From an uncultured Pseudomonadota bacterium (GTDB lineage Bacteria; Desulfobacterota; Syntrophorhabdia; Syntrophorhabdales; CAYQXL01), in contig CAYQXL010000002.1 in NCBI GenBank assembly GCA_964421445.1, positions 13,602-77,601 of the forward strand: 64,000 bases of DNA. Direction: 5' to 3'. The notes beneath the pieces are model-generated. The model ran no database searches. It saw only the letters and a program-made list of their open reading frames with translations, and had not been told where the DNA came from. A program made the position numbers and the translations under genes. The number at the start of each line of letters is the position of its first letter. Position 1 is the stretch's first letter. Of this stretch, positions 32,815 to 52,468 are shown one piece after another.

Positions 32815-32818
32815 GAAC

Positions 32819-33445: not shown

Positions 33446-33485
33446 AGAGCCCCGATACATCGAGCGACACCGCATTCTCTTCGCG

Positions 33486-33514: not shown

Positions 33515-33535
33515 CAAGCTCATCAACACAATCCT

Positions 33536-35803: not shown

Positions 35804-36005
35804 AGAGATGACGTGCGTGCTTCGCGGGTATGTCCCTCCGGGAAAACTGCCGTCGATAGGGCAACCGTTGAGGAGGGATGGATCTGAAGAACAGAGTGTC
35901 CCTGTCCTGCGAATCCCTCTTCTCTGAAAAATATAAACGTTCAAGACGTTCTACAGGCACGGGATAGACAGGATCGCCGGGGCGACTTACACTATGTGAC
36001 AGGAT

Positions 36006-37160
36006 ATGTCGGTCTTCTTTCTTACATTTTTTACCCTCTACAGCGGTCTCCATCTCTTCGCTCTTTTGAGGATCCGCAATGCTTTCGGCCTGAGGGCCCT
36101 TCCTGTAGTCTGTCTTTCCATTTTTATGGCTTGCATGATTCTGGCGCCTCTTTTTGTCCGTTTGTTCGAAAGGGCTGACCAGATGGGGGCAGCTCAGGTA
36201 ACAGCCTACGCCGGATATCTCTGGATGGCATGGATTTTTCTTTTTTTTGTGAGCCTTCTTGCCGTCGATTCTCTGCGGTTTCTTGTGCTGGGAGCAAGAA
36301 AGATTGGCGGGTTTCCTTTTGTCGAAACCCCTCATGTTCAGCGATGGTTGGTTGTGACTGCCATCGGTCTTGCGACGGTCTCGTCGGTCTATGGTTTTGT
36401 GGAAGCCCGGACAGTCCGGGTGAACAGGGTTGTTGTCGAATCATCACGGCTTGCTCCCTCTCGTGGTGAGGTCAGGATAGCCCAGATATCAGATTTGCAC
36501 CTTGGTCTTATCGTCGGAAAAAAGAGACTGAACAACATCGTCTCTCTCATCGAGGCGGAAGATCCGCATATCATCGTTTCGACCGGCGATTTGGTGGATA
36601 TTGATGCCCGTAAGCTCGATGGTCTGTCAGGTATTCTTAACCGCCTCGCTCCCCGACAGGGCAAGTACGCAGTAATGGGAAATCACGAGTTCTATGCCGG
36701 GATAGGGGAAGCGGTAGCGTTCACGGAAAGGGCCGGTTTTCGTATTTTGCGGGGCGAGGCCGTGGAGCCCTTGCCCGGTGTGCGTATGGTCGGTGTTGAC
36801 GATGATGTTGGAATGGCCTTTCATGGCATGAAATCGGCAGTGGACGAATCGGCTCTTCTTGGAAGAGTGAGGGACGATGAGTTCATAATCGTACTGAAGC
36901 ACCGCCCTCTTGTGTCCCGTGATGCTCTCGACCGCTTCGATCTCCAGCTTTCCGGTCACACCCACGGAGGTCAGATCTTTCCCTTCTCTTTTGTCACCAG
37001 GCGTGTATTTCCCTACAGCTCGGGGATGCACCAGGTGGGAAGAGAATCCCTCGTCTTCGTAAGCAGGGGAAGCGGCACCTGGGGCCCGCCTGTCCGACTG
37101 TTTGCACCGCCCGAGATAACGGTTATTCACATCCGCCCCAATCCTCTTGTCCCTCGTTGA
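36006..37160 (+). CDS. membrane-anchored metallophosphoesterase
   Basis: 384 aa. Four N-terminal TM segments, then the calcineurin-like motifs ISDLHLG, TGDLVD, MGNHEFY, SGHTHGGQ. Confidence 0.85.
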   Translation: MSVFFLTFFTLYSGLHLFALLRIRNAFGLRALPVVCLSIFMACMILAPLFVRLFERADQMGAAQVTAYAGYLWMAWIFLFFVSLLAVDSLRFLVLGARKIGGFPFVETPHVQRWLVVTAIGLATVSSVYGFVEARTVRVNRVVVESSRLAPSRGEVRIAQISDLHLGLIVGKKRLNNIVSLIEAEDPHIIVSTGDLVDIDARKLDGLSGILNRLAPRQGKYAVMGNHEFYAGIGEAVAFTERAGFRILRGEAVEPLPGVRMVGVDDDVGMAFHGMKSAVDESALLGRVRDDEFIIVLKHRPLVSRDALDRFDLQLSGHTHGGQIFPFSFVTRRVFPYSSGMHQVGRESLVFVSRGSGTWGPPVRLFAPPEITVIHIRPNPLVPR

Positions 37161-37188
37161 CACTCGTGGAAAAGACGTTAGAATTCCC

Positions 37189-37217
37189 TTGACACTAAGT
37201 AAATAATATTTAATACT
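37189..37217 (+). promoter_or_regulatory. candidate sigma70 promoter of the 12-gene catabolic operon
   Basis: TTGACA (37189-94), then a 16/17-nt spacer and TAATAC/AATACT, in a locally AT-rich stretch. It overlaps a 10-bp direct repeat (see findings). Confidence 0.45.
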
Positions 37218-37247
37218 TTAACAAATATTTAATTGATAGGTGGCTTG

Positions 37248-37790
37248 ATGGATATCGGCGGAAAAATGCGGGAGTTGAGGGAAAAAAGAGGTTTTACGAT
37301 CAAACGACTCGCGGAGATCGTTGAATGTACTCCGTCTCTCATATCCCAGCTCGAGCGGGGAAAAGCCGATCCGTCAATATCGATGCTGAAGAGAATCGCA
37401 AAAGGATTGAACGTCAATATCATCGATTTTTTCATGACATGTTCCGATGATGATGACGTTGTTACGCGGCTCGATGAACGGATCGATATCCAGTTAAAAA
37501 AATGGGACGCTCGGATTCAGTCTCTCGTCAAAACAGTAACGAATAAAAAGATGCAGCCCTTTTTTACGGTCATTGGGCCTGGCGGTGGTTCGCACGGGAT
37601 CTATTCCCATGAAGGCGAAGAATTCGGATATCTCCTGAAGGGAGAACTGGAACTCGTCCTTAACGACACTGTTCATATCGTAAAGGCAAATGAAAGTTTC
37701 TATTTTTCGTCGCAGACGCCCCATGACTGGAACAACAAAGGTACAGAAGACGCGGTGGTCATCTGGGTTATTACGCCGCCGACGTTTTAA
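37248..37790 (+). CDS. XRE-family HTH regulator with C-terminal cupin sensor domain
   Basis: I chose the ATG at 37248. It has an HTH_3 pattern (LRELREKRGFTIKRLAEIVECTPSLISQLERG) and a cupin pattern (HEGEEFGYLLKGELEL...ESFYFSSQTPH). Confidence 0.85.
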   Translation: MDIGGKMRELREKRGFTIKRLAEIVECTPSLISQLERGKADPSISMLKRIAKGLNVNIIDFFMTCSDDDDVVTRLDERIDIQLKKWDARIQSLVKTVTNKKMQPFFTVIGPGGGSHGIYSHEGEEFGYLLKGELELVLNDTVHIVKANESFYFSSQTPHDWNNKGTEDAVVIWVITPPTF

Positions 37791-37825
37791 AGGAAATCCG
37801 GTTAAAGACTATCAAGGAGGGAATT

Positions 37826-39316
37826 ATGGCAATACTGGCGGAAGTAAGCAAAAATTACGGAAAGCTGGGGCTCTATATAAACGGCGAATGGGTCGCGCCG
37901 GCAGCCGAACAATATTTTGAAACGACCAACCCTGCTACCGGCGAGGTGATTGCCGAAGCTCCAATGGCCTCCAAAGAACAGGTGGATCAGGCCATAGGGG
38001 CTGCCCATGAAGCGTTCAAGAAATGGAGGAACGTGCCTTTTCGGGACAGGGCAAAAATGATCTTTACGCTCAGGGAAAAGTTCGTTGAACATCACGAGAA
38101 GCTCGCCCGTATCCTTGTTCAGGATCACGGATGTACGATTGACGAGGGAAGGGGTACCATTTCGAGATGTATCGAGAATATAGAGGCCGCGGGGAGCGCC
38201 ATGTACAGCTACTACAGGGGCCAGCATGTCGAACAACTGGCGACAGGGATCGACTGTTATCAGGTCTATGAGCCTGTCGGTGTTTTCATGATCATTACGC
38301 CGGGCAACATACCGATGCATGCCTGGTCCTCTTTTGTGCCTTATGCGCTTGCCTGTGGTTGTTCGGTTCTTGTGAAACCGAGTCGTCAATGCCCTGTCTC
38401 TGCCGATGCCATGTTTAAGGTTCTTGACGAGGCGGGTTTTCCGGCCGGTGTGGCGAATCTTCTCCATACAGGCCCCGACAGAAGCCTCAACACCCAGATT
38501 CTCTCCGATCCGAGGGTAAAAGGGGTCGGTCTCATCGGCTCGACCCGGGTCAGCAAGGAGCTTTTTGAACTCTGCGGAAAGTATGGGAAACGATCGTCGC
38601 TTAACGGGAACGGAAAAAATTATATCGTTGTCATGCCTGACTGTGAGCTCGATAATGCAGTGAACTATATACTCCGCGGATGTTTCGGCATGACGGGACA
38701 ACGGTGCCTCGGTTCGGACAATGTGGCTGTGATTGGTGATGACAAAAGGTTTGCCGCATTGAAGGAAAAACTGATCGCCGCTTCTCAGGCGATGAAGATG
38801 GGGTACGGTCTTGATGAAGCAGTGGAACTCGGACCTCTTACAACAGAGAATGGCCGGAATCAGGTTCTCGATTTCATCGATTCAGGGATCAAATCAGGAG
38901 CCAAACTCATCCTTGACGGCCGCACGGTTAGAGTTTCCGGGTATGAGAAGGGGTATTTTCTCGCCCCTACGATCTTCGAAGGGGTTACCCCTGATATGCA
39001 CGTGGCAAAGGAAGAGGCCTTTGGACCAATGTGCAATCTCCTCCGGGCGAATGATCTCGACGAGGCAATCGGGTGGATCAACGGTACCAACTACGGCCAT
39101 TCGGCCTGTATTGTCACGGAGAGCGGAAAGGTTGCCCGGAAGTTCATCAGAGAATGTGACGTTGGAAATGTCGGGGTGAACGCCGGTATTCCCCAGCCTT
39201 TTGCCTTTTTTGGTCTTGGTTCCAAAAAAGATTCCTTTTTCGGCATGTCCAAGTCACGGATGGACTCAATCAAACTCTTCCTCGATGAGAAGACAGTGAC
39301 TCTTCGGTGGGTATGA
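37826..39316 (+). CDS. aldehyde dehydrogenase, methylmalonate-semialdehyde dehydrogenase (CoA-acylating) type
   Basis: 496 aa. ALDH fold with catalytic Cys in FGMTGQRCLG (Arg-Cys as in MMSDH GQRCMA). Asn replaces the general-base Glu 34 residues upstream (LNGNGKNYIVVMPD, compare ANMGAKNH.VVMPDA). SD AAGGAGGG. Confidence 0.8.
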   Translation: MAILAEVSKNYGKLGLYINGEWVAPAAEQYFETTNPATGEVIAEAPMASKEQVDQAIGAAHEAFKKWRNVPFRDRAKMIFTLREKFVEHHEKLARILVQDHGCTIDEGRGTISRCIENIEAAGSAMYSYYRGQHVEQLATGIDCYQVYEPVGVFMIITPGNIPMHAWSSFVPYALACGCSVLVKPSRQCPVSADAMFKVLDEAGFPAGVANLLHTGPDRSLNTQILSDPRVKGVGLIGSTRVSKELFELCGKYGKRSSLNGNGKNYIVVMPDCELDNAVNYILRGCFGMTGQRCLGSDNVAVIGDDKRFAALKEKLIAASQAMKMGYGLDEAVELGPLTTENGRNQVLDFIDSGIKSGAKLILDGRTVRVSGYEKGYFLAPTIFEGVTPDMHVAKEEAFGPMCNLLRANDLDEAIGWINGTNYGHSACIVTESGKVARKFIRECDVGNVGVNAGIPQPFAFFGLGSKKDSFFGMSKSRMDSIKLFLDEKTVTLRWV

Positions 39317-39403
39317 ACGGAAAAAAATAGCCTCCCGTCGGTCTACCGCTCGATTGGAAAACATAGTATGCTTATGCATGGATTCCAATCAAGGAGGACG
39401 GTT

Positions 39404-40486
39404 ATGTGCGAAGAATGCAGGGAGATTTCTCGAAGGGGTTTTCTGAAGGGTGCGTTGATCGGGGGGGCTGCGGCAGGGCTCGGCATCCTCGACAGCAACC
39501 TCCTTCTTGCCCAAAGCTCGACCATCAAATTCAGCACGTGGCATCCACCCGTCAGCCGTGAGGTAAAGACGGTCTGGACCCCGATGATGGAGGAACTGAA
39601 GAAAAAGAGTGGCGGCAAACTCGGTTACACCATGTATGCCGGGGCAGCTCTCGGCAAGGGTCCTGAACATTTCGATATCGTTGCCAAAGGACTCTCGGAT
39701 ATGGGGTATTTTACTGCCACCTGGACGCCGGGACGGTTTCCCCTTACCGATGTCCTCTCGCTTGCTGTCTGGGTTGACGGTAAGGATGTGGCCGCGGATA
39801 TCGGGAACGCAGTCTACACAAGGGCCCTGAAGAATGAGTTCAAGAACGTTAAGGTCCTTGAACTGAACGGGTGTATTCAGTCCTTCATCTGGACGAAGAA
39901 GCCTGTGAGTAAAATGGCCGATCTGAAAGGCATGAAACTCAGGTCTCCCGGAGGTCATCAGACAAACTACATCAAATCCCTCGGAGCGGAACCGGTATTT
40001 ATGCCCCTTGGTGATGTCTATATGGCAATGGAAACAGGGACGGTGGATGGTATTGTAACCTGTCCACCCCTTATCCTGGCATACAAGCTGTACGAAGTGG
40101 CGAAGAACGCGACGGTCCTCACCTTCGGCTGTGTCTCCGAAGGGGCGGTGATGAACATGAATAGCTGGAACAGGCTATCGGGCGATCACAAAAAACTCGT
40201 GGAAGAGGTCTGTACCAACCCTTTCAAATCGACAGGGGGCCTTACACGGGATGACTACAAGGTGATCATGACGGAAATCCAGAAAGCGGGAGTGAAGTTG
40301 ATCGATCTGCCGAAGCCGGAAGCGGACCAGTGGTATAAGAGGTTCCAGGACGTTACACGGAAGTGGGTTACCGACATGGAAGCAAAAGGCCTTCCGGCAA
40401 GGAAGACGGTTGCCATAATGAATGAGGAATGCGAGAAGAGAAAGGTACAGCTCGTTGCCTGTCCTCCCGAGTTTAAGAAGATCTGA
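39404..40486 (+). CDS. dctP: TRAP transporter substrate-binding protein (DctP family) with twin-arginine signal
   Basis: The ATG lies behind AAGGAGGA. SRRGFLKGALIGGAAAGL is a Tat-type signal. DLKGMKLRSPGG contains the conserved carboxylate-binding Arg of DctP proteins. Confidence 0.87.
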   Translation: MCEECREISRRGFLKGALIGGAAAGLGILDSNLLLAQSSTIKFSTWHPPVSREVKTVWTPMMEELKKKSGGKLGYTMYAGAALGKGPEHFDIVAKGLSDMGYFTATWTPGRFPLTDVLSLAVWVDGKDVAADIGNAVYTRALKNEFKNVKVLELNGCIQSFIWTKKPVSKMADLKGMKLRSPGGHQTNYIKSLGAEPVFMPLGDVYMAMETGTVDGIVTCPPLILAYKLYEVAKNATVLTFGCVSEGAVMNMNSWNRLSGDHKKLVEEVCTNPFKSTGGLTRDDYKVIMTEIQKAGVKLIDLPKPEADQWYKRFQDVTRKWVTDMEAKGLPARKTVAIMNEECEKRKVQLVACPPEFKKI

Positions 40487-40501
40487 CAAGAAGAGGTCTG
40501 G

Positions 40502-40996
40502 GTGGGTACCGTGCAGGCTGTGAGGATGTTTGTCGACCGGGTTACGCGGATCATGGGCACCGTGGGAATGATCTTTGTTATCCCCCTCATGCTCCTGACG
40601 ACGGGCGATGTCCTGGGAAGAGGTCTTTTCAATAAACCTATCGCCGGAACGTTTGAGACATCAGAATATATGCTCGCCGTGATAATACTCCTCGGTGCCG
40701 CCTACACCCAGCAGGTCAAGGGTCACGTGGCTGTAGACTTTCTTACGGTCCATTTCAGCGAAAGAGCCCGGTTGATCTGTAAGGTTTTCACCATGGCCCT
40801 GAGCCTCTTCATTGTAACGGTCATCGTATGGCAGGGCTTTGTTCTCGGACTGGAAGAGACGGGCGTTACGGATCAGTTGAGGATACCCAGGGCACCCTTT
40901 AAGATGCTTGTGGGCATTGGGGGATTTTTTTTGTGGCTCCAGGTTCTTTTTGATCTGATCGATGCGGTCCTCGGGCTGAAAAAGAAGGGTATGTGA
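40502..40996 (+). CDS. dctQ: TRAP transporter small permease
   Basis: 164 aa, four TM segments, position between dctP and dctM. A GTG start is assumed; the ATG at 40526 is an alternative. Confidence 0.78.
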   Translation: MGTVQAVRMFVDRVTRIMGTVGMIFVIPLMLLTTGDVLGRGLFNKPIAGTFETSEYMLAVIILLGAAYTQQVKGHVAVDFLTVHFSERARLICKVFTMALSLFIVTVIVWQGFVLGLEETGVTDQLRIPRAPFKMLVGIGGFFLWLQVLFDLIDAVLGLKKKGM

Positions 40997-42300
40997 ATCC
41001 CATAACGATAGGTATACTCGGTTGTTTCGTCATGGTTGTCCTCCTGTTTTTGGGGATGCCTATCACCTTTGTCATGATGTTCGTCGGGTTTTGCGGTATC
41101 TGGTACCTGTCGGGACTGGAGGCCGCCCTTCCGGTAGTCGCGAGCACGCTCTATGAAACGGCTGCCCACTATCCTTTTACCATTATACCTCTTTTTGTCC
41201 TGATGGGCGGTTTTGCCGATGGATCAGGGATAACGACACGCCTCTACGATACATTCGACAAGTGGTTCAGGAGGCTCCCCGGAGGATTGGGTATCGCCAC
41301 CATTGTTGCCATTGCCGGTTTTTCGGCCATCAGCGGTTCATCGGTGGCCACGTCTGCGGCCTTTGCCAAAACGGTCATCCCTGAGATGAGACGATACAAA
41401 TATAAGCCCGGTTTTGCCGGTGGAATCGTTGCAGCAGGGGCGACCATCGACTTCCTGATACCCCCTTCCATCGGGTTCGTGGTTTACGGGATGCTTACGG
41501 AGCAATCGATCGGCAAGCTCCTCATAGCCGGTATGCTCCCCGGTCTTCTCCTCGCCGCCCTTTTTGTGGCAATCATTGTGGCATGGGTCACGATCAACCC
41601 GTCCATTGCCCCTGTTCCTCCCGGGAGGCCGACATGGAAAGAGCGGCTTTTTTCCCTCTGGGGCATGTGGGAAACACTCGTCGTCTTTCTCGTCACCATC
41701 GGAGGGATGTACCTCGGGTACGTCAATCCGACGGAGGCGGGAGGGATCGGATGCATATCCCTGCTTGCCATTACCCTTATCAAGAAAGAACTTACCTGGA
41801 AGCAGTTTGTCGACAGCCTCTATGAGACAACGCGGGTGACCTGCATGGTCATGTTTCTTGTTGCCGGAGCCAGCCTGTTCAGCTATTTTCTTGCTCTCTC
41901 CACGATCCCTACGGCAGCTTCATCGTGGATTTCAGGCCTTGGGGTTTCACGGTATATGGTTCTCATCATTGTTGTCGGGGTCTATCTCGTCCTCGGGTGT
42001 TTTCTCGATGCTGTTTCCATGATGGTTCTTACCATGCCCGTTGTCTTTCCGGTTATGGTAGGCCTCGGATTTGACCCCATATGGTTCGGCGTGATCTGCG
42101 TTCTTATGATGAATGCCGGCCTTATCACCCCGCCTGTCGGTCTCAATGTGTATACCATCGCAGGTATCGTTCGCGATGTGCCCATGAAAGACGTTTTTAA
42201 GGCCGCAACCCCCTTTCTCATAGCGATCCTGGTGACGGCGGTCATTCTGACCGTCTTTCCCGTGATCGCGACCATATTGCCGGCCCAAATGGTCAGGTAG
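40993..42300 (+). CDS. dctM: TRAP transporter large permease
   Basis: 435 aa, polytopic. The GTG start overlaps the dctQ stop (GTGA). Typical DctM pattern (LLFLGMPI..., PPSIGFVVYG). Confidence 0.92.
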   Translation: MNPITIGILGCFVMVVLLFLGMPITFVMMFVGFCGIWYLSGLEAALPVVASTLYETAAHYPFTIIPLFVLMGGFADGSGITTRLYDTFDKWFRRLPGGLGIATIVAIAGFSAISGSSVATSAAFAKTVIPEMRRYKYKPGFAGGIVAAGATIDFLIPPSIGFVVYGMLTEQSIGKLLIAGMLPGLLLAALFVAIIVAWVTINPSIAPVPPGRPTWKERLFSLWGMWETLVVFLVTIGGMYLGYVNPTEAGGIGCISLLAITLIKKELTWKQFVDSLYETTRVTCMVMFLVAGASLFSYFLALSTIPTAASSWISGLGVSRYMVLIIVVGVYLVLGCFLDAVSMMVLTMPVVFPVMVGLGFDPIWFGVICVLMMNAGLITPPVGLNVYTIAGIVRDVPMKDVFKAATPFLIAILVTAVILTVFPVIATILPAQMVR

Positions 42301-42346
42301 GAGAGGATATGGTTCGATCGGCATGCCAGGGCTGGAGGTGCGGGGG

Positions 42347-42823
42347 ATGAAGAAGATATATTTTGTGCTCAATGGAAAGCCAGTGGAAGCGAATGTAGAA
42401 GATAATGAGACGGTTATCGAGATGCTCCGGGAGAGGTTTGGCCTGAAAAGTGTGAAAGAGGGCTGCTCTATCGGCGAATGCGGTGTCTGTACTGTTCTCG
42501 TCGACGATGAACCACGGTACGGGTGTTTGACCCTTTCGTTCAAAGTGGACGGAAGGGACGTGAAAACCGTCGAGTTTCTTGGAGATGGGGAGAACATTCA
42601 TCCTCTCCAGCAATCATTCATGGAGAGTGGGGCTGTCCAGTGTGGCTACTGTACGCCGGCCATGCTTCTGACGGCTTACAGCCTCCTCCTGAAGAAGGGG
42701 AAGGGGTTGACCAGGGACGATATCCGTGGGGCTCTCAGCGGTAACCTGTGCCGCTGTACGGGCTATATTCAGATTATTGAGGCTGTGGAAAATGCTGCCG
42801 GAATTCTCGACAGAAATCGCTGA
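42347..42823 (+). CDS. molybdenum hydroxylase [2Fe-2S] small subunit (CoxS/XdhC-iron-sulfur type)
   Basis: Plant-type cluster motif CSIGECGVCTV plus the second-cluster motifs QCGYCTPAM and CRCTGY. Confidence 0.92.
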   Translation: MKKIYFVLNGKPVEANVEDNETVIEMLRERFGLKSVKEGCSIGECGVCTVLVDDEPRYGCLTLSFKVDGRDVKTVEFLGDGENIHPLQQSFMESGAVQCGYCTPAMLLTAYSLLLKKGKGLTRDDIRGALSGNLCRCTGYIQIIEAVENAAGILDRNR

Positions 42824-43628
42824 GTCCAAAGACGATGCCCTGAAGAGGCTTGCCCGCGATCCTTCGGCAAAGATCATGGCCGGAGGAACGGATCTTCTCA
42901 TCACGATGAGAAAAGGGAAACGATGGCCCGTGGTCCTGGACATTTCATCGATTCCGTCGCTATCGTACATTTCTTCCCACGAAGAGACCCTCTCTCTCGG
43001 ATCGCTGGCGACTCACGGGATGATCGCCGCCGATGAAACCGTGCGGGATTATGCCCCGGGCCTCGCCTATGCCTGCAGCCAGATAGGATCTCCCCAGATC
43101 AGAAACGCCGGAACTCTTGGCGGCAACCTCGTCAATGCATCGCCCGCTGCTGATTCCCTTCCTCCTCTTCTCGTTCATGACGGGTCAGTGATCCTTGAAT
43201 CCCTTCAGGGCACGAGAGAGGTGCCGATAGAGGAGTTTATCGCCGGTCCCTATAAAACAACGATCGAGCCCTACGAACTCGTCTCAGCGGTGCGCCTGAA
43301 AGTGTTGAAGGATTGCCGTCAGGGGTACCGCAGAGTTGCCAAGAGAGCAACCTGGGCCATTTCGCGACTTTCCCTGGCCTGGGCCCTGACTGAGGGGGAT
43401 GGACGATTCGGGGAGGTGCGGCTCGCTGTAGGGTCATGTACCCCTGCGCCTTTCAGGGCCAGAAAGGTGGAGGATTTTTTGAGGGGAATGGAAAAGACTG
43501 AAAGGACGATCGCCCGGGCAGTCAAGATAATGACTGATGAAATCGTGGCAGTCAGCGGGGTGCGGCCTTCCTATCTCTACAAAATCCCCGTCCTGGAAGG
43601 GCTTATGAGAATGGTTCTGGAGAAATAG
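42792..43628 (+). CDS. molybdenum hydroxylase FAD-binding medium subunit (CoxM type)
   Basis: I chose the internal ATG (MLPEFSTEIAESKDDALKRL...IMAGGTDLL); it overlaps the small-subunit gene by 32 nt. AGTLGGNL FAD motif. Confidence 0.87.
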   Translation: MLPEFSTEIAESKDDALKRLARDPSAKIMAGGTDLLITMRKGKRWPVVLDISSIPSLSYISSHEETLSLGSLATHGMIAADETVRDYAPGLAYACSQIGSPQIRNAGTLGGNLVNASPAADSLPPLLVHDGSVILESLQGTREVPIEEFIAGPYKTTIEPYELVSAVRLKVLKDCRQGYRRVAKRATWAISRLSLAWALTEGDGRFGEVRLAVGSCTPAPFRARKVEDFLRGMEKTERTIARAVKIMTDEIVAVSGVRPSYLYKIPVLEGLMRMVLEK

Positions 43629-43632
43629 GCGA

Positions 43633-45780
43633 ATGAACATCGGCATTCCGATTCCCCGTACGGACAGTATGGATAAGGTCCTTGGCAGGCCGCTCTTTGC
43701 CGGCGATATCTATCCCAGAGACGCTCTCCATGCTGCGGTGGTCAGGAGCACCCGTCCTCACGCCAGGGTCAGGTCCGTCGATATCCGCCGGTCACTTGAG
43801 ACTCCGGGGGTCGTAAAGATCCTCTCGGCCCGTGATATTCCCGGTGAAAACCTCTTCGGAGCCATACGGAAGGACCAGCCCTTTCTTGCAGGAGAAATTG
43901 TCAGGTATGCCGGTGAGCCCCTCCTTGTCGTTGTGGCCGAAACGGATCGCCAGGCCCGGGAAGGTGCCGATCGTGTGAGAATCGGCTACGATGACCTGGA
44001 TGTTCTCATCGATCCGGTTACCACAAGCCGTTCACCTGCCTCCATTCACGATGAGGGCAATCTTCTGAGCATGCGGCGGGTTGTGAAAGGTGACGCATTA
44101 CGGGCCCTTAAAGACTGCGACGTGGTCGTAGAGAACACTTACAGGACAGGATGGCTCGATCATGCTTTTCTTGAGACGGAGGCGGGGTTCGGGTATCAGG
44201 ATGAACGGGGGCGCATTGTTGTTGTTTCGTCCACCCAGAACATTCATTACAAGATGAAAGAGATCTCCCGCCTTCTCGCAATGCCCGAGGATCGTATCCG
44301 TGTCATACAGGCCACGACAGGCGGTGGGTTCGGAGGGAAGCTCGATGTGACCGTTGAGGGCTTTATCGCACTTGCCGTCTATCATACGGGCCGTCCGGTG
44401 GTGATGCGGTTCAGCCGGGAAGAAAGCTTCCTTTCCAATACCAAACGGCACCCCCTCTACGTGGAATACAGGACAGGAGCGAAAAAGGATGGCTCCATTC
44501 TGGCTGTGGACGTGTCGATCGTCGGTGATACCGGTCCCTATGCATCCTACGGCGAGACAGTCTGCCTGAGGGCCGCCATTCATGCCACGGGACCGTACGA
44601 GGTTCCTCACGTTTCAGTGGAGAGCCGCATGTACTACACGAACAATCCCGTATCCGGGGCTATGAGGGGTTTTGGTATCCCCCAGCTTGCCTTTGCCCAC
44701 GAATCTCAAATGGACGAAGTGGCGAAAGCGCTGAACATGGATCCCTTCGACATCAGGATGAAGAACGGGTTGAGGAAGGGATCATTGACGGCGACATCCC
44801 AGGTTCTTGAGGCCAGCGCCGGATTTATCGACACATTGAAGGCTGTTGAGCCCTTTTGGCGAGGACGGAAGAAAGACCATGGTGAACAGGGATTCGGTCT
44901 GGGATGCATGTTTTACGGCTGTGGAAATACGGGGATATCGAATCCTTCATCGGCCTACATCACGGTACGGGGCGATGGGAGAATTGCTCTCCATACAGGT
45001 GTCTGTGAAATAGGACAGGGCTCTGACACCATACTCGTTCAGATTGTCCAGGAGACAGTTGGATGCGGTAAAGATGACATTGTTCTCGTCCGGGGGGACA
45101 CGGACACATCCCGCGATGCAGGTTCATCGTCGGCGAGCCGGCAGACCTATATCTCGGGGAAGGCCGTACAGAGGGCCGCCGAGAACCTCCGAATCTACCT
45201 TGATAAAAAAGGTTTTCCAGGCGGTGATAAACTCACGGACGTCTGTCGTCGCGACAAGGACCTCCCTTCGCTGGTCTTCGACGGATATTTCGATCCTCCT
45301 GCAGGGACCGTTGATCCTGTGACGTCCCAGGGAAGTCCCTATGGAACGTATGCATTTGCGACCCACCTGTCTGAAGTGAATGTGGAGGAAATCACAGGTA
45401 TCTGTTCGGTAAAAAGAGTCTATGCCGCCCATGACGTAGGACGGGCCATCAACGTCCATAACATTAAAGGTCAGATCTGTGGCGGCGTGGCCATGGGCAT
45501 AGGATTCGCCCTGATGGAGGAATTTGTTCCCGGCCGGACCGAATCGCTCGATACATATTACCTTCCCACGTCAGCCGATATGCCTGAAATTGAAGCTCTG
45601 ATCATCGAAAACCACGAGCCCACCGGGCCCTTCGGGGCAAAGGGGGTAGGCGAGCCGGCTCTCATTCCCCAGGCAGCGAGTATCGTGAACGCCATCTGTG
45701 ATGCGACCGGTGTGCGACCCTTCAGATTGCCCGTTGATATGGAAAGGCTGAAGGAGCTTTTGGGAAAGAAGCGGGAATAA
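43633..45780 (+). CDS. molybdenum hydroxylase molybdopterin-binding large subunit (xanthine dehydrogenase family)
   Basis: 715 aa. GGGFGGK, AMRGFGIPQ and GVGEPAL (catalytic Glu) motifs. The substrate cannot be read from the sequence. Confidence 0.92.
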   Translation: MNIGIPIPRTDSMDKVLGRPLFAGDIYPRDALHAAVVRSTRPHARVRSVDIRRSLETPGVVKILSARDIPGENLFGAIRKDQPFLAGEIVRYAGEPLLVVVAETDRQAREGADRVRIGYDDLDVLIDPVTTSRSPASIHDEGNLLSMRRVVKGDALRALKDCDVVVENTYRTGWLDHAFLETEAGFGYQDERGRIVVVSSTQNIHYKMKEISRLLAMPEDRIRVIQATTGGGFGGKLDVTVEGFIALAVYHTGRPVVMRFSREESFLSNTKRHPLYVEYRTGAKKDGSILAVDVSIVGDTGPYASYGETVCLRAAIHATGPYEVPHVSVESRMYYTNNPVSGAMRGFGIPQLAFAHESQMDEVAKALNMDPFDIRMKNGLRKGSLTATSQVLEASAGFIDTLKAVEPFWRGRKKDHGEQGFGLGCMFYGCGNTGISNPSSAYITVRGDGRIALHTGVCEIGQGSDTILVQIVQETVGCGKDDIVLVRGDTDTSRDAGSSSASRQTYISGKAVQRAAENLRIYLDKKGFPGGDKLTDVCRRDKDLPSLVFDGYFDPPAGTVDPVTSQGSPYGTYAFATHLSEVNVEEITGICSVKRVYAAHDVGRAINVHNIKGQICGGVAMGIGFALMEEFVPGRTESLDTYYLPTSADMPEIEALIIENHEPTGPFGAKGVGEPALIPQAASIVNAICDATGVRPFRLPVDMERLKELLGKKRE

Positions 45781-45875
45781 GATGAGATAACGGATCAGGC
45801 CGGACGACCCTCAACGATGATGAAGGCGTCCCATGGAGAATCAAGTCGAAAAATACGTAAGCAGGAGGTTGATCA

Positions 45876-47030
45876 ATGAGTACGTTAACCATACAGAATA
45901 TTGGCGTTGTCTTCACCGGTGATTTGAGTGCTCCTGTCATCGAAGGACCTTGTGCGGTCTATGTGGAAGACGGAAAGATTGCAGCAGTCGGGACGACCGG
46001 TGATTTTACCGCCGATAAGGTCATCGATGCCAATGGAATGACAGTCTGTCCCGGTCTTATCGATTCCCATACGCACCCTGTCTTCGGTGATTTTACACCA
46101 CGGCAGAATCAGCTTGGGTTTATCGAAAGCAGTCTTCACGGTGGTGTGACTGCCATGATATCAGCCGGCGAGGTTCATCTCCCAGGCCGGCCTACCGATC
46201 CAAAGGGGACGAAGGCCCTCGCTTTGCTTGCGCAGCGGTCGTTTGCGAAGCTGAGGCCTGCCGGTGTAAAGGTGTACGGTGGCGCGTTAATCCTCGAAAA
46301 AGGTCTTACTGAGGACGATTTCCGGGAACTGTCGGACGATGGTGTCCGCCTCGTCGGTGAAATAGGACTGGGGAGCATCAAATCGGCGAGTGAAGCGAAG
46401 ACAATGGTTGAGTGGGCCAAGAAATACGGCATGAAAGTGATGATGCATGTCGGTGGTACGTCGGTGCCGGGAAGTTCGACCGTCACCTGCGATGATGTTC
46501 TCACGGCAGATCCCACCGTTGCCTGTCATCTCAATGGTGGTCCGACAAGTGTCCCTGTTGATGAAGCGAAACGGATCATCAACGAATCTCAGGTGACAGT
46601 CGAGATCGTCCATTGTGGCAATATGCTGTCGGCTTTCGAGATCGGCAGGTACATGAAGAACAGGAACCTCCTCAGCCGGCTGATTATCGGGAATGATGCG
46701 CCGTCGGGAACGGGTGTCATTCCTCTCGGAATATGGAGGATGGTTGCGTACCTCTCCGCTCTCTGCGGCGTCTCCGCTGAGATGGCCGTCTGCTGCGCCA
46801 CCGGCACCACGAAGACCGTCTATGATCTGTCGCACGGGATGATCCGGGTCGGCGACGATGCAGACCTTCAGATTATTGATGCACCGATGGGGTCGGCCGG
46901 GTCGGATGCGAAATCGGCGATAGAGGCAGGTGATATTCCCGGCGTTGCGATGGTTGTTATTGATGGTCTCGTGAAAACAGGAGTGAGCAGGAATACGCCG
47001 CCTCCTGTGAGAAAGGCTGTGATCCTCTGA
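45876..47030 (+). CDS. amidohydrolase-superfamily enzyme, enamidase-like
   Basis: 384 aa. Composite beta-sandwich N-terminus and the DSHTHP metal motif. Size and context (next to the Hnr-like gene and a Mo hydroxylase) match enamidase of nicotinate fermentation. SD AGGAGG. Confidence 0.6.
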   Translation: MSTLTIQNIGVVFTGDLSAPVIEGPCAVYVEDGKIAAVGTTGDFTADKVIDANGMTVCPGLIDSHTHPVFGDFTPRQNQLGFIESSLHGGVTAMISAGEVHLPGRPTDPKGTKALALLAQRSFAKLRPAGVKVYGGALILEKGLTEDDFRELSDDGVRLVGEIGLGSIKSASEAKTMVEWAKKYGMKVMMHVGGTSVPGSSTVTCDDVLTADPTVACHLNGGPTSVPVDEAKRIINESQVTVEIVHCGNMLSAFEIGRYMKNRNLLSRLIIGNDAPSGTGVIPLGIWRMVAYLSALCGVSAEMAVCCATGTTKTVYDLSHGMIRVGDDADLQIIDAPMGSAGSDAKSAIEAGDIPGVAMVVIDGLVKTGVSRNTPPPVRKAVIL

Positions 47031-47089
47031 CCGATGCTTCGAAATGGTCCGGGTTATTCCACGGGAGAGAATGAAGAGGACAAGATTCC

Positions 47090-48601
47090 ATGAAGATCGA
47101 TCTGGATAAATGTATCGGATGCGGGTTCTGTGAAGAGGTCTGTCCTCTCGGTGTACTTGCCGTTGAGGAGAAAAAGGTCCGGATGCGACCGGGATGTGTT
47201 GACTGCAAAACCTGCATGAAGGTCTGTCCCAAGTCGGTCTTTTCCCTTGCCGAAGAAGTTGGTTTCCCTGTCTGTGACGCCTGTCCTGTCATGTGCCGCA
47301 TACCTGAAGAAGGCTACGGCGCCTGTCTGCGTTACCGGAATGTCAAGGGCGAGATCGTCAGGGAGGGACGTGTCCATACGTACGAAGAGGTAAAGGATAT
47401 CGTCCGGCAGGGTGCGGATAGCCGTGCGATCGAAGAGCCTCTCATCACAGGTATAGGATCGGGAACGACCTATCCCGATTTCAGGCCTTCACCTTTTATC
47501 GTGAGCGGCGTAAGGGACGGTGTCGATATTATCACCGTTGTGACAGAAGCCCCCCTCAGTTACAGCGGAATAAAGCTGAAAGTCGATACGGATCTCGGCC
47601 TTGGGCAGGAAGGGCAGGGTGTCTACATCGTGAAGAAGGGCAGACGCCGTATCGGCCATCTCTGTACGGAAGAATATGGGTCGAAGATCCTCTCCTTGGG
47701 CGGGGTCAACATCTTTACCTCGAAAGATGGCCTTTTCGCAGCCCGTGCAATGGCTGAATTGCTCGGGGGCCGGGCAATCACTGTAGAAGTCGAGAATGGT
47801 CCGAGGATCGAACTCTGTCTCGGAAAGGGGCCACGGGTGGATGGAAGGACGGAGGAACGGATGAGGGTGGGGTGCGGGAGCGCAACCACCGGTCTGTTTG
47901 CCCCGTATATGTTGACTGCAGCCGATGAAGTCGTGGTCCTCGATGGCCACATTACCGGTCTTTTCAGTGAGCATCCTTCCGGGCGCTATCTGGGAAAGAA
48001 GCGCTCTCCAGTGGAGATTGTCGGCCAAAAAAACACGGAAGGACGGTACTTTCTCACCAAGGGGAACGGGTGGGGAGGAACAGATGTCGTCAATCCCCTC
48101 GATGCTGTTGGCGTGAAAGACTTCCGGACCGTTCCGGAAGGTATGACTCTTCTCGTAACAGAGACAACGGGGCGAATGTTCGCTTTCTTTCGATTTACCG
48201 ACGGAGCGTTCAGGGAAGACGAACCCACTCAGGATGCCCTGAAATTTCTTCAGGTCCTCAGGGAATCCTGCGAGCCATCGATGGTGACCGCTGTCTTTGC
48301 TGCCGGAATAGGGGGCTCGGCCCGGGCGGGGGTCACGAAGAACCCTATCAGACTGACGAAGGCTGTTCATGAAGGCCGGGTGTCGGTCACGATAGGCGGT
48401 GCGAAACCCTTCATTTTTCCTGGCGGAGGCATCAATTTTCTCGTCGATGTTCAAAAAATAAGGCATGGCAGTATCTATCTTACGCCAACGCCGTCCTTTG
48501 TGCTCCCTGTGGAGTACACGATGACGAAAGAGACCTTCGAGGCTATCGGCGGGCATGTTGAGGCAATAAGACCGGTCGACGAAGTTGTGAAAAAGGGATG
48601 A
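47090..48601 (+). CDS. 6-hydroxynicotinate-reductase-like iron-sulfur protein
   Basis: 503 aa. N-terminal 2x[4Fe-4S] ferredoxin motifs CIGCGFCEEVCP and CVDCKTCMKVCP, a further Cys cluster CDACPVMC...C, and a large uncharacterised C-terminal domain. The assignment rests on architecture and context only. Confidence 0.5.
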   Translation: MKIDLDKCIGCGFCEEVCPLGVLAVEEKKVRMRPGCVDCKTCMKVCPKSVFSLAEEVGFPVCDACPVMCRIPEEGYGACLRYRNVKGEIVREGRVHTYEEVKDIVRQGADSRAIEEPLITGIGSGTTYPDFRPSPFIVSGVRDGVDIITVVTEAPLSYSGIKLKVDTDLGLGQEGQGVYIVKKGRRRIGHLCTEEYGSKILSLGGVNIFTSKDGLFAARAMAELLGGRAITVEVENGPRIELCLGKGPRVDGRTEERMRVGCGSATTGLFAPYMLTAADEVVVLDGHITGLFSEHPSGRYLGKKRSPVEIVGQKNTEGRYFLTKGNGWGGTDVVNPLDAVGVKDFRTVPEGMTLLVTETTGRMFAFFRFTDGAFREDEPTQDALKFLQVLRESCEPSMVTAVFAAGIGGSARAGVTKNPIRLTKAVHEGRVSVTIGGAKPFIFPGGGINFLVDVQKIRHGSIYLTPTPSFVLPVEYTMTKETFEAIGGHVEAIRPVDEVVKKG

Positions 48602-48613
48602 TGGCTGACCGGT

Positions 48614-49465
48614 TTGCGGGAAGGAAACTGGACCGTGTTTATTGATATTGGACCGGTATCGATGTATGTGGTGACAGAGAAAGACGGATCTCGCCATGAT
48701 CCCTGCCGATCAGAGACGGAAGCATTCATAGGACGAAATCTCGGAATGATAGGTGACTGTCTTCCGGTGCTTCGTCAAAGGGCCGGGAGAATTGTCAGGT
48801 ATTCCCACCTTCCCCCTGTTGCGGCGATGATGATTCGGGCTGCCCAAACTGTCGACGGAGCTTCACTGACACCGATGGCAGCGGTAGCCGGCGCCGTATC
48901 GGAAGTGGTGAAAGATTATCTGAAAGATCAGGGCTTCGATTTTATTTCCGTCAATAACGGAGGGGATGTGGCCATATTCAACGCCGGCGGAAGGAGTCTC
49001 TCCGTAGCGATCGGCGATATCCGGACCGGTCATGCCAGTCCTTATACGCTCGTCATCAGCCGTTCGGGGGACTATGGTGTGGCCACAAGCGGTCTGGAGG
49101 GAAGAAGCTTTACCCTCGGCGTTGCCGATTCTGTCACTGTTATCGCAGACTCGGCACCCGTGGCTGATGCAGCGGCCACATTCGTAGCAAACAACGTCAC
49201 TGTCGATTCACCTGTGGTGGTGAGAATGAGGGCAGGGGATGTTGATCCCACAAGTGATATTGCCGGGGAAGAGATCGTTGTAGCAGTCGGTGAATTGGAA
49301 GAATCGGAGATATCCGCCGCCCTGGAGCGGGGATTGGTTGTTGCCCGGACCCTTAAAGCCGAGGGAGTAATCTGTGATGCTGTGCTGCAGGTCAAAAAAC
49401 GGATGGCAACGACAATTGAGAAGACCACTACTATCATGCTCGAGGTGAACTATGGAAATACGTAA
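48614..49465 (+). CDS. UPF0280 / ApbE-fold family protein
   Basis: 283 aa. The LTPMAAVAGAVSEVV and SVNNGGDVA motifs are what I associate with UPF0280. The start is uncertain (TTG 48614, ATG 48662). Confidence 0.55.
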   Translation: MREGNWTVFIDIGPVSMYVVTEKDGSRHDPCRSETEAFIGRNLGMIGDCLPVLRQRAGRIVRYSHLPPVAAMMIRAAQTVDGASLTPMAAVAGAVSEVVKDYLKDQGFDFISVNNGGDVAIFNAGGRSLSVAIGDIRTGHASPYTLVISRSGDYGVATSGLEGRSFTLGVADSVTVIADSAPVADAAATFVANNVTVDSPVVVRMRAGDVDPTSDIAGEEIVVAVGELEESEISAALERGLVVARTLKAEGVICDAVLQVKKRMATTIEKTTTIMLEVNYGNT

Positions 49466-50027
49466 AATTGTAACGGTTGTTGAAGATGTTCTCATGGAAG
49501 GAGGAAAAGCGATGGCGCGGCCCTTGCGAAAAGTGGCCTGTATCGCTGTTATCAGGAATCCCTATGCAGGAAAATATGAGGAAGATCTGTCAGCTCTTGT
49601 TGATTTCAGCGAAGAAGTAGGTGCGATAATTTCTGCCCGGGCGGTGGCCATGCTTGAACCGGACAGGAAGCCTGAGAGCTATGGGAAGGCAGCCATTGTT
49701 GGCGAAAAAGGCGAACTGGAACATGCAGCGGCTCTCCTCCATCCCAAACTGGGGACACCTCTCCGGACCGCTGTCGGCGGCGGCAAGGCTATTATCCCAT
49801 CCGCGAAAAAGATGGGTCGCATGGGAGATTCGATCGACATCCCCCTTCACTACAAAGACGCTGCTTTTGTCCGCTCCCACTTTGACGGAATGACTGTCTC
49901 TGTAGGAGATGCGCCGAGATCGGACGAAATCGTCCTTGCTGTAGCCGTGACTGACGGTGGAAGACCCCTTGCGCGGGTCGGGGGCCTGAAGAAGGACGAA
50001 GCGAAAGGTGAAGACGGATTAAGATAG
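49452..50027 (+). CDS. DUF1185 ('amino acid synthesis') family protein
   Basis: 191 aa. MEIRKIV..EGGK...AVIRNPYAG...YGKAAIVGEKGELEHAAALLHP...IDIPLHYKD...DAPRSDEIVLAVAVTDGGRP follows the family pattern. SD GAGGTGA. It overlaps the upstream gene by 14 nt. Confidence 0.68.
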   Translation: MEIRKIVTVVEDVLMEGGKAMARPLRKVACIAVIRNPYAGKYEEDLSALVDFSEEVGAIISARAVAMLEPDRKPESYGKAAIVGEKGELEHAAALLHPKLGTPLRTAVGGGKAIIPSAKKMGRMGDSIDIPLHYKDAAFVRSHFDGMTVSVGDAPRSDEIVLAVAVTDGGRPLARVGGLKKDEAKGEDGLR

Positions 50028-50377
50028 GATTACCTGTGATGGAGAGGCTAATGCCTGGTGGTAGGTGGTCTCATTGCAGATCATCCCGCCAGGCAGCCAA
50101 ACCCCTTCATCGACTCTCTGCCCCCCCTTAAACATAGACACGTTCCATTCCCGCATTTTCCTGTTCCCTGCATTCTCCTGCCCGTAACCGTTTTTATGCC
50201 ACCGGAAACAACGAGATGTGAATCGCACCCTGGCGAAACGGTGTCTGCCATGTGGTGGTCCGGCCTCTTCTCTTTGAACGGTATGTTCCAGGAAATCAGT
50301 AAGGAGAACAGTTAAAAGGAGAGTCTCAAATCATGTTTTAAATTTCATGAAATATGAAAAATAATACATGAAATTCC

Positions 50378-50406
50378 TTGACAATAAAACTTCGGGGGTA
50401 TATAAA
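50378..50406 (+). promoter_or_regulatory. candidate sigma70 promoter of the GntR-ABC operon
   Basis: TTGACA (50378-83), 17-nt spacer, TATAAA (50401-06). It lies inside the 5' end of the track ORF, which argues for the downstream ATG at 50413. Confidence 0.45.
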
Positions 50407-50412
50407 CGTATT

Positions 50413-51087
50413 ATGGCAGACGTAATGAAGGTCCACAAACAGCGTCTCAGCAATCAGGTCTATGACATTGTCAAAGAGATGATTGCCAACCATCGGTTTG
50501 AACCAGGTACACGATTGAACGTCGAGCAGATTGCCAAAGAAGTCGGGGCAAGCAGGACCCCTGTATGGGAGGCTGTTCATCGGCTCATACAGGAAGGTCT
50601 TCTTGAAAACATACCGAACAGGGGTGTGTTCATGGTGAGCCTGACGCCTGTTACGGCACGCGAACTCTATACGGTCAGAGAGGTTCTGGAAGGTCTTGCG
50701 GCCCGTTTGGCAATTGAGAATACCGACGAACGGCTGATAAGAAAGATGACGAAAATCCTCAAAGAGCAGGACAAGGTCATTCGGAGGGGGGATCTTGTCG
50801 GATATTCGAAGTCGGACTTTGATTTCCATGCTCTCGTTTATGAAGCGAGTGGCAACAGGACCCTTCAGGAGATGCTCGAAGAGATCAAAAACAAAATGAG
50901 ACCGATTTCTATGCACATACAACCAATATTGAGTGAGCTCTATGCCGATCATCTGAAGATACTCGAAGCGTTCAAGGATCGGGATCGGGAGAAAGCGGAA
51001 AAGGCATTTCTCGATCATAACAGGCAGATGATCCGGAAGATTGAGGAGAGTGCGACAGAAAAGGAGTGGTCAGCGGCGAAAGGATGA
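50413..51087 (+). CDS. GntR-family regulator with FCD ligand domain
   Basis: HTH pattern LSNQVYDIVKEMI...LNVEQIAKEVGASRTPVWEAVHRLIQEGLL and a C-terminal FCD-like helical domain. Start is 50413 (or 50425/50368). Confidence 0.87.
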   Translation: MADVMKVHKQRLSNQVYDIVKEMIANHRFEPGTRLNVEQIAKEVGASRTPVWEAVHRLIQEGLLENIPNRGVFMVSLTPVTARELYTVREVLEGLAARLAIENTDERLIRKMTKILKEQDKVIRRGDLVGYSKSDFDFHALVYEASGNRTLQEMLEEIKNKMRPISMHIQPILSELYADHLKILEAFKDRDREKAEKAFLDHNRQMIRKIEESATEKEWSAAKG

Positions 51088-51143
51088 AGGAAGAAAATGG
51101 GCAAGGGTTTTGAACGGGAGAAATAACCATAAGGAGGAGTCCA

Positions 51144-52406: not shown

Positions 52407-52420
52407 TCATATGAACGACA

Positions 52421-52451: not shown

Positions 52452-52468
52452 ACCCTGGAGAGACTATT

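Follow-up and report, generated by a model that had tools for sequence, protein, structure and literature searches.

A putative nicotinate degradation operon with a methylmalonate-semialdehyde-dehydrogenase-like lower branch in Syntrophorhabdus-type anaerobes

Introduction

Nicotinate (vitamin B3) is a ubiquitous vitamin and N-heterocycle. To our knowledge, genes for its anaerobic breakdown have been defined solely for the B12-dependent fermentation of Eubacterium barkeri, which reduces 2-formylglutarate with Hgd and then rearranges the product via a B12 mutase. A nicotinate-oxidising sulfate reducer was reportedly isolated in 1983, and we are aware of no gene that has been linked to a step beyond 2-formylglutarate in a glutarate-type route. 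Here, we analyse an operon at 37248-50027 on the + strand of a 64,000-nt stretch of DNA (the window) from an uncultured bacterium of the Syntrophorhabdales. It encodes relatives of the nicotinate upper-pathway enzymes together with an aldehyde dehydrogenase (ALDH) similar to methylmalonate semialdehyde dehydrogenases (MMSDHs). All positions are window coordinates unless a locus is named.

A second route is said to proceed via glutarate in Azorhizobium, where Kitts and co-workers in 1992 reportedly described it physiologically, as decarboxylation followed by oxidation to glutarate. The first three enzymes of the pathway were reportedly found in nine Proteobacteria by Alhapel and co-workers in 2006. 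Neither the upper pathway nor its conserved cluster is new, as both have been reported before. A core cluster with two unknown genes has been presented for Azorhizobium, Bradyrhizobium and Rhodopseudomonas, along with the Azorhizobium-type route via glutarate, in a study that builds on Alhapel 2006 (PMC3511419, Pearce et al. 2012, Fig. 4).

Our literature searches on 2-formylglutarate, enamidase, Desulfococcus niacini, and Syntrophorhabdus with nicotinate found no genes for the steps after 2-formylglutarate. The initial annotation of the operon had known of no gene set of this composition defined for such a route in an anaerobe. This stands for the ALDH branch, which we did not find in the literature, but not for the core and the two unknown genes, which are already known in Proteobacteria. 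The MMSDH-like lower branch, its packaging with a TRAP transporter and an XRE-cupin regulator, and its broad distribution among Syntrophorhabdus-type anaerobes do not appear to have been described.

The operon is probably a self-contained anaerobic nicotinate module that leads from nicotinate via 6-hydroxynicotinate, 1,4,5,6-tetrahydro-6-oxonicotinate (THON) and 2-formylglutarate to glutaryl-CoA and CO2. This reading of the sequence draws on the full-length match of the enamidase, the likeness of the molybdenum (Mo) subunit to NdhL plus NdhM, the family of the 6-hydroxynicotinate reductase (Hnr), the conserved gene order, the nicotinamidase PncA in sibling clusters, and the active-site residues of the ALDH along with its mutual exclusion with Hgd.

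Upper pathway

The identification of the upper-pathway enzymes is solid. In the PDB search, residues 1-384 of the amidohydrolase pair with residues 1-386 of the E. barkeri enamidase (2vun_A, E 9.7e-125), and the next-best PDB match falls to E 2e-8. Its DSHTHP segment, at aa 63, aligns with DTHVHV of 2vun_A as the HxH metal motif. The proposal of an enamidase at 45876-47030 is thus borne out by an end-to-end alignment with all 386 residues of 2VUN.

The 715-aa Mo subunit matches NdhL (3HRD_A) over aa 9-404 with 388 bits (7e-115) and NdhM (3HRD_B) over aa 550-701 with 186 bits (7e-54). Lower scores are given by aldehyde oxidoreductase (319 bits), 4-hydroxybenzoyl-CoA reductase (276 bits) and xanthine dehydrogenase (251 bits), and the sum for 3hrd_A and 3hrd_B exceeds the score of every other solved Mo hydroxylase. 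By PDB bit scores, the Mo enzyme is closest to nicotinate dehydrogenase, not to aldehyde oxidoreductase or xanthine dehydrogenase, and we assign the subunit as a fused NdhL-NdhM. The split of E. barkeri type is absent from the window, which has a single open reading frame (ORF) here as against two in the Firmicute loci. The motifs noted before in this subunit are all present (GGGFGGK at aa 230, RGFG at aa 345 and GVGEP at aa 671).

The 503-aa protein carries two CxxCxxCxxxC ferredoxin motifs with invariant Cys (C8/11/14/18 and C36/39/42/46), with Fer4 matching aa 1-50 only, and a third four-Cys site (C62/65/69/79) that is invariant in 81 sequences. For Hnr of E. barkeri, Alhapel and co-workers in 2006 reportedly found a covalently bound flavin in addition to two [4Fe-4S] clusters and one [2Fe-2S] cluster, and the Cys pattern fits this cofactor content. 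Homologues are in many cases named 6-hydroxynicotinate reductase by JGI and NCBI. The protein is 46% identical to Hnr of Neomoorella carbonis over aa 1-500 (L044, E 4e-141), our stand-in for E. barkeri Hnr, and 42% identical to that of Eubacterium aggregans over aa 2-498 (L062). No entry named E. barkeri occurs among the best 120 homologues of the E. aggregans Hnr. Taken together, the Cys pattern, the names in the source databases and the E. barkeri-type cluster L044 place the protein in the 6-hydroxynicotinate reductase family. An Hnr had been claimed at 47090-48601, and the two [4Fe-4S] motifs, the homologue names and the full-length match to the L044 Hnr agree with it.

For the Hnr catalytic domain there is no structural precedent. 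No Pfam model covers residues 60-503, and the confident AlphaFold model (68 homologues, mean pLDDT 82.6, pTM 0.71) finds no neighbour in the PDB by Foldseek, the best hit having E 0.03 and a TM score below 0.1. The loop at 122-131 (GSGTTYPDF) is strongly conserved and is one of only two low-confidence stretches in the model.

The N. carbonis locus L044 represents the E. barkeri-type nicotinate cluster here. Its upper genes encode an MFS transporter, the FAD and FeS subunits, split NdhL and NdhM, Ena, Hnr, UPF0280 and DUF1185. Its lower genes encode a HIBADH-like Hgd, a serine-dehydratase-like protein, a B12-binding mutase, a PrpF-type isomerase, MutL, a PEP-mutase/ICL-type lyase and an aconitase-type dehydratase. 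The window operon shares with it the nicotinate dehydrogenase subunits, the 2x[4Fe-4S] Hnr, the enamidase, UPF0280 and DUF1185, at identities of 40-67%.

The two differ in uptake (TRAP versus MFS), in the regulator (XRE-cupin versus a sigma-54 PrpR-type activator), in the fusion of NdhL and NdhM to one protein of 715 aa, and in the lower pathway. The window operon has no Hgd, Hmd, B12 mutase, Mii, MutL, Dml or Dmd, and has the MMSDH-like ALDH instead. As had been stated, none of the E. barkeri lower-pathway genes is among the operon genes, nor among the other window ORFs scanned, whereas all are in L044.

Uptake and substrate

The transporter is of the TRAP type, with DctP, DctQ and DctM encoded together and TIGR00786 scoring above its cutoff. 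DctP is 63-84% identical in the sibling operons. Its best PDB relatives bind unrelated acids, and no ligand can be inferred from them.

PncA, a nicotinamidase of the isochorismatase family, lies inside 12 sibling Hnr clusters, in many of them directly after or beside the ALDH gene (L005:1752, L011:5804, L013:7571, L022:5373, L023:4558 and seven other loci). It scores 177 bits against a cutoff of 174 for NF008623, the NCBIfam equivalog of nicotinamidase/pyrazinamidase. Its presence gives independent support for nicotinate as the substrate, with nicotinamide as a feeder. The operon in the window has no PncA. A downstream isochorismatase (53985-54647) was considered for this role and rejected, as it is BiuH/RutB-like and below the cutoffs.

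We consider it unlikely that the same enzymes act on another pyridine or N-heterocyclic carboxylate, such as 6-hydroxynicotinate alone (from 6-chloronicotinate or nicotine) or a substituted nicotinate, in which case the ring-opened aldehyde would not be 2-formylglutarate. The specificity of a Mo hydroxylase is not readable from sequence, the identities to the E. barkeri-type enzymes are just 40-57%, and the ALDH lies outside the MMSDH cutoff; the ligands of the DctP relatives point the same way. However, PncA is embedded in the 12 sibling clusters, the enamidase match of 1e-124 spans the full length, and the whole five-gene core is collinear with the E. barkeri-type nicotinate cluster.

Aldehyde dehydrogenase of the lower branch

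The top ten PDB sequences for the ALDH are all MMSDHs, the best being 5tjr at 8e-105, and hydrolytic ALDHs come next at about 1e-62. Against the MMSDH model TIGR01722 it scores 383.4 bits, under the cutoff of 448.5, and its orthologues in L012 and L029 score 370 and 392 bits. Hence, the ALDH represents a divergent sister lineage and not a member of the family.

The positions of Glu268 and Cys302 were taken from an alignment with human ALDH2. In the window ALDH, Asn260 stands at the position of the general base Glu268 (in the LELGGK motif of ALDH2), C294 corresponds to Cys302 and R293 to Arg301, and R114, the Arg124 equivalent, aligns with the Arg of ELKRGIE in 5tjr. N260, C294, R293 and R114 are all invariant in 17 ALDH orthologues, which share the signatures S-[IL]-NGNGKN and GQRCLG. 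By contrast, an unrelated ALDH in L080 carries the usual LELGGKSP. The lack of Glu268, together with Arg124 and Arg301, is said to have been recognised by Talfournier and co-workers in 2011 as the hallmark of CoA-dependent beta-decarboxylating MSDH.

The ALDH is similar over its full length to the MmsA/IolA MMSDHs (5tjr, 4zz7, 1t90), and like them keeps the Cys and the two Arg equivalents and lacks Glu268. The chemistry proposed for it, namely oxidation, beta-decarboxylation and transfer to CoA, would also be theirs. Apart from the score below the family cutoff, it is unlike them in having NGNGKN instead of GGAKNH, in the carboxyethyl of its proposed substrate, and in its context of nicotinate rather than valine or inositol catabolism.

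2-Formylglutarate is methylmalonate semialdehyde with a carboxyethyl in place of the methyl, and the product of the ALDH from it is most likely glutaryl-CoA plus CO2. A bona fide TIGR01722 MMSDH occupies the equivalent position in L025 (39-1703, 480 bits) and L038 (294-1790, 495 bits), although it is just 35% identical to the window ALDH. This is an independent recruitment of MMSDH chemistry, and two such recruitments into the same cluster are the strongest argument that the pathway needs exactly such chemistry. The two fates of 2-formylglutarate use homologues of consecutive valine-pathway enzymes, HIBADH in the case of Hgd and MMSDH in that of the ALDH.

A hydrolytic, CoA-independent ALDH is quite unlikely. 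2-Formylglutarate would then be decarboxylated, either spontaneously or by DUF1185, and the ALDH would oxidise the resulting glutarate semialdehyde to free glutarate, an order of steps that suits the one reportedly given by Kitts and co-workers in 1992, with decarboxylation before oxidation to glutarate. The glutarate route is confirmed in PMC3511419, and DUF1185, to which no function is assigned, shows a conserved pocket of Glu, His and Arg. Nevertheless, the general base is replaced by an invariant Asn, Arg301 and Arg124, reportedly the beta-carboxylate binders in MSDH, are kept, and in L025 and L038 a genuine MMSDH takes the place of the ALDH. Moreover, DUF1185 is equally conserved in the E. 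barkeri-type clusters, where no decarboxylation occurs, and the alphaproteobacterial clusters have no ALDH.

Distribution of the lower branches

When one genome per species was scanned, at least 597 stretches proved to hold an Hnr relative, and the best 80 loci were analysed. The core of FeS, FAD and Mo subunits, Ena, Hnr, UPF0280 and DUF1185 is common to the Desulfobacterota, Firmicutes and Alphaproteobacteria, while the lineages differ in the gene acting after 2-formylglutarate. The MMSDH-like ALDH (55-100% identity) without an adjacent Hgd is found in 17 anaerobe-type loci, which belong to the Syntrophorhabdales, Desulfobacterales, Deferrisomatales and Syntrophales and to one Desulfocucumis Firmicute. 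An Hgd-like reductase without the ALDH is found in eight Firmicute loci, seven of them with the split Mo subunit. Neither gene is present in about 30 alpha- and betaproteobacterial loci.

Across 81 loci, the ALDH and the Hgd-like reductase never occur together. The expected co-occurrence is seen, as the ALDH accompanies Hnr and Ena in about 20 anaerobe loci and never the Hgd-type reductase.

The association was also viewed from the ALDH side. The best 120 ALDH homologues are 61-100% identical and come mostly from metagenome-assembled genomes of Syntrophorhabdaceae or 'Deltaproteobacteria'; at least 18 of these are paired with Hnr homologues through an equal longest-contig value. Three of four sampled orthologues sit in Hnr clusters. 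The same operon is found around P0195 (L086; Syntrophorhabdus, ALDH 67% identical) and P0135 (L087; 81% identical), with the examined DNA ending inside the UPF0280 gene in both and with the upstream synteny of the window in the latter. In the index of the assembly collection, the P0195 orthologue turns up in 259 blocks. Around P0175 (L089; 72% identical), the operon has an ABC transporter in place of TRAP. This last operon (L089:1-9088) adjoins phage-like genes for a terminase GpA, an integrase and an antitoxin, and several of its transporter and Mo-subunit genes look fragmented.

It is improbable that the ALDH is an ordinary malonate/methylmalonate semialdehyde dehydrogenase of a beta-alanine, valine or propionate pathway, merely co-located or co-transcribed: JGI does label the clade so, and one 77% identical copy lies away from any Hnr gene, but the ALDH is consistently linked to the nicotinate core in the Syntrophorhabdales, Desulfobacterales, Deferrisomatales, Syntrophales and a Desulfocucumis Firmicute, at varying positions in the cluster, it excludes Hgd, and the operon holds nothing else from such pathways.

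The alphaproteobacterial THON clusters, surveyed in L050-L082 with a few Firmicute loci and one Burkholderiaceae locus among them, have the same core. However, their Hnr is without the 2x[4Fe-4S] domain, so that matches begin near aa 51-62, their uptake is by an ABC transporter of branched-chain amino acid type, their regulator is MarR-like, and no MMSDH-like ALDH lies within 10 kb. The glutarate route that had been cited from Azorhizobium as a precedent stands as such (PMC3511419), but it is not explained by the ALDH, which is absent from the alphaproteobacterial clusters.

Many of the alphaproteobacterial Hnr loci in L050-L082 also have no enamidase within 10 kb and have a HyuA-like hydrolase, eight of them a 677-aa hydantoinase/oxoprolinase. 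Several have two tandem DUF1185 genes and the MarR-like regulator. The ring-opening step in these loci may differ.

Proposed pathway

In the nicotinate module, DctPQM would import nicotinate or 6-hydroxynicotinate, and the three-subunit Mo/FAD/2Fe-2S nicotinate dehydrogenase would hydroxylate nicotinate at C6. Hnr, fed via its N-terminal 2x[4Fe-4S] domain, would reduce 6-hydroxynicotinate to THON, and the enamidase would open the ring to give 2-formylglutarate and NH3. The ALDH may then handle 2-formylglutarate as a 2-substituted malonate semialdehyde, yielding glutaryl-CoA, CO2 and NAD(P)H. Glutaryl-CoA would enter the trunk from glutaryl-CoA to crotonyl-CoA, putatively encoded elsewhere in the genome.

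Several points weigh against this pathway. The ALDH scores under the MMSDH cutoff, so its substrate is not readable from the family. The Hnr comparison runs via L044 and not via E. barkeri Hnr. Among the anaerobe-type Hnr loci whose flanks are long enough, about one in two has no ALDH within 10 kb, and neither have the alphaproteobacterial clusters, the sole ones with a physiologically shown glutarate route. The copy mentioned above (P0167, L088:10001-11491) lies outside any Hnr cluster and adjoins a molybdopterin oxidoreductase; the ALDH-Hnr association is strong, not exclusive. Finally, the window yielded neither a glutaryl-CoA dehydrogenase nor a glutaconyl-CoA decarboxylase. An acyl-CoA dehydrogenase encoded at 27229-28407 was rejected for the former, as AcrC and cyclohexane-carbonyl-CoA dehydrogenase are the models that fit it best and the glutaryl-CoA dehydrogenase model scores far below its cutoff.

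The operon offers a concrete and testable candidate for the long-open step after 2-formylglutarate, though not a very surprising one, in an ALDH that is common in Syntrophorhabdus-type syntrophs. If real, the predicted ALDH activity would short-circuit nicotinate catabolism into glutaryl-CoA in strict anaerobes. The operon would thereby tie vitamin B3 turnover to the glutaryl-CoA trunk by which aromatic compounds are degraded. Three poorly understood families, namely UPF0280, DUF1185 and the Hnr catalytic domain, are also set in a firm functional context by the operon.

UPF0280 and DUF1185

UPF0280 clusters with Hnr in 75 of the 80 loci, usually as the next gene downstream, and DUF1185 is found in 66 Hnr loci. 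Both also occur in the E. barkeri-type clusters, so they are likely to serve the common upper pathway and not the decarboxylating branch. DUF1185 has solved relatives in 2QTP (SPO0826) and 3byq.

With the UPF0280 family profile, the PDB search gives the structural-genomics protein 2o34 at 2e-21 and, marginally, Vibrio cholerae ApbE (6nxi) at 0.016. UPF0280 shares the aligned segments GGD/GGE, ATSG and ADxxAT with ApbE (6nxi, 3pnd, 4xgv). Unlike ApbE, it is cytoplasmic, the catalytic-His segment YSHIIDP is absent from the profile alignment, and its score of 25.3 bits is below the ApbE gathering threshold of 25.6.

The gene of UPF0280 adjoins that of Hnr, and the covalent flavin that Hnr reportedly carries, from the same work of Alhapel in 2006, makes a flavin-transferase role for UPF0280 attractive. 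Speculatively, UPF0280 may install this flavin and is a candidate maturation factor. No canonical [ST]GA[ST] acceptor motif is invariant in Hnr, and the Hnr sequences showed no ApbE-type motif whose acceptor Thr or Ser is invariant. As a single ApbE-type flavinylation site, T126/T127 was rejected, being not conserved in the Firmicute clade (GAGTNYPC), as was T266, which varies to V, A or C with no correlation to the presence of UPF0280.

A fuller version of the module combines these roles. The ALDH would be a hitherto undescribed enzyme, an MMSDH-derived, decarboxylating and CoA-acylating 2-formylglutarate dehydrogenase, UPF0280 and DUF1185 would be dedicated upper-pathway helpers, and UPF0280 would mature Hnr as a cytoplasmic, His-less flavin transferase of ApbE type. 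As a whole, this combination is tentative and rather doubtful.

Operon structure and promoter

The operon consists of 12 ORFs on the + strand (Table 1). An identical metagenome contig from ENA with its own gene call (L001; window coordinate = L001 coordinate + 37089) returns the same 12 genes, and Pfam and NCBIfam searches back the domain assignment of every one. The intergenic gaps are all 95 nt or less, the widest lying between the Mo subunit and the enamidase (45781-45875). There are three start/stop overlaps, of 4 nt between DctQ and DctM if GTG 40993 is the start, of 32 nt between the FeS and FAD subunits (ATG 42792) and of 14 nt between UPF0280 and DUF1185. The GC content is 0.50-0.55 and not distinct from the flanks. 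The initial annotation had given these 12 co-directional genes with the same gaps, overlaps and order, and the ORF list and the L001 gene call agree with it.

All 12 genes stand in identical order in L083, L084 and L085, and 11 genes do so in L086 and L087 as far as the examined DNA reaches, which ends inside the UPF0280 gene. The 3' neighbours of the sibling operons vary, being BamA/OmpH/LpxD, ABC fragments or PPDK. The same gene order with unrelated neighbours downstream indicates that the unit ends after DUF1185. That the order recurs in L083-L087 between flanks that are unrelated puts it far beyond what chance would give.

Table 1. Coordinates of the operon genes and of the upstream sites in the window
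Feature	Position	Strand	Evidence
Second sigma-70-like site, just upstream	37157-37184		consensus scan, 11/12 match
Sigma-70-like promoter candidate TTGACA-N17-AATACT	37189..37217	+	consensus scan, 10/12 match
Direct repeat AATATTTAAT	37205-37214 and 37224-37233	+	overlaps -10 box and leader
XRE-family HTH + cupin regulator, 180 aa, PuuR-like architecture	37248..37790	+	HTH_3 1.6e-14, Cupin_2 1.2e-18
Putative MMSDH-like CoA-acylating aldehyde dehydrogenase (ALDH), 496 aa	37826..39316	+	Aldedh; best model MMSDH (TIGR01722, 383 bits); 5tjr 8e-105
TRAP solute-binding subunit DctP, twin-arginine signal	39368..40486 (alternative start 39404)	+	DctP 5e-38, TAT_signal 2e-5
TRAP small membrane subunit DctQ	40502..40996	+	DctQ 3e-24
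TRAP large permease DctM	40993..42300	+	DctM 8e-96; TIGR00786 317 bits, above cutoff
2x[2Fe-2S] subunit of molybdenum hydroxylase, NdhS-like	42323..42823	+	Fer2_2 8e-28, Fer2
FAD subunit of molybdenum hydroxylase, NdhF-like	42792..43628 (longest ORF from 42726)	+	FAD_binding_5 1.5e-43, CO_deh_flav_C; L001 call starts 42792
Molybdopterin subunit, 715 aa, NdhL+NdhM fused, predicted nicotinate dehydrogenase	43633..45780	+	Ald_Xan_dh_C + MoCoBD_1/2; 3hrd_A 7e-115, 3hrd_B 7e-54
Predicted enamidase, 384 aa	45876..47030	+	Amidohydro; 2vun_A full length, E 9.7e-125
Predicted 6-hydroxynicotinate reductase (Hnr), 503 aa	47090..48601	+	N-terminal Fer4; 46% identity to L044 Hnr
UPF0280 / ApbE-like protein	48662..49465 (longest ORF from 48614)	+	ApbE 25.3 bits (cutoff 25.6); PF27030 in precomputed hits
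DUF1185 (PF06684) protein, 191 aa	49452..50027	+	AA_synth 3e-73; 2qtp 7e-67; 3byq 8e-39

Both sigma-70-like sites fall in the sole sizeable gap upstream of the operon. Consensus matches over the whole region number 11 versus 9.1 expected from shuffles, which is not above chance, so the promoter argument rests on position and conservation. The -35 box and the TTAAT region of the site at 37189-37217 are invariant upstream of the operons in L083, L086, L087 and L089, although the proteins encoded by these orthologous operons are just 60-80% identical. The single promoter candidate named earlier is thus confirmed at this site and kept in related operons.

The repeat pattern ATAYTTAA is retained in L083, L086 and L087, and we infer that the AATATTTAAT repeats are a candidate operator for the XRE-cupin regulator. 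Its gene comes first in the operons L083-L087 and L089, and the PuuR model gives it 75 bits, below the model cutoff. By binding these repeats, the XRE-cupin protein would probably act as a repressor of the conserved promoter.

Genomic surroundings

Upstream, window 26049-37160 is syntenic with L087:1-8801 on a 5.6-Mb contig, with genes for a DUF362-Fer4 protein, an acyl-CoA dehydrogenase, a flavodiiron protein, FeoB and a metallophosphoesterase. FeoB and the metallophosphoesterase precede the operon in L086 too. This shared synteny indicates that the operon lies at a stable chromosomal site in the lineage. In addition to these upstream genes, the window holds ordinary ones, such as those for cytochrome bd, CarB, IlvD, a GlcD-like oxidase, CFA synthase, PmbA, MBOAT/AlgX and a TonB receptor.

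Downstream, 50368-57918 is a separate unit with a GntR/FCD regulator, an ABC transporter of branched-chain amino acid type (a binding protein, two ATPases and two permeases), the isochorismatase-family hydrolase described above and a MOFRL/DUF4147 glycerate-2-kinase-like protein. These GntR, ABC, isochorismatase and MOFRL genes were rejected as part of the operon, since they are not conserved beside the nicotinate operon elsewhere. The unit looks like an uptake and hydrolysis system for some amide.

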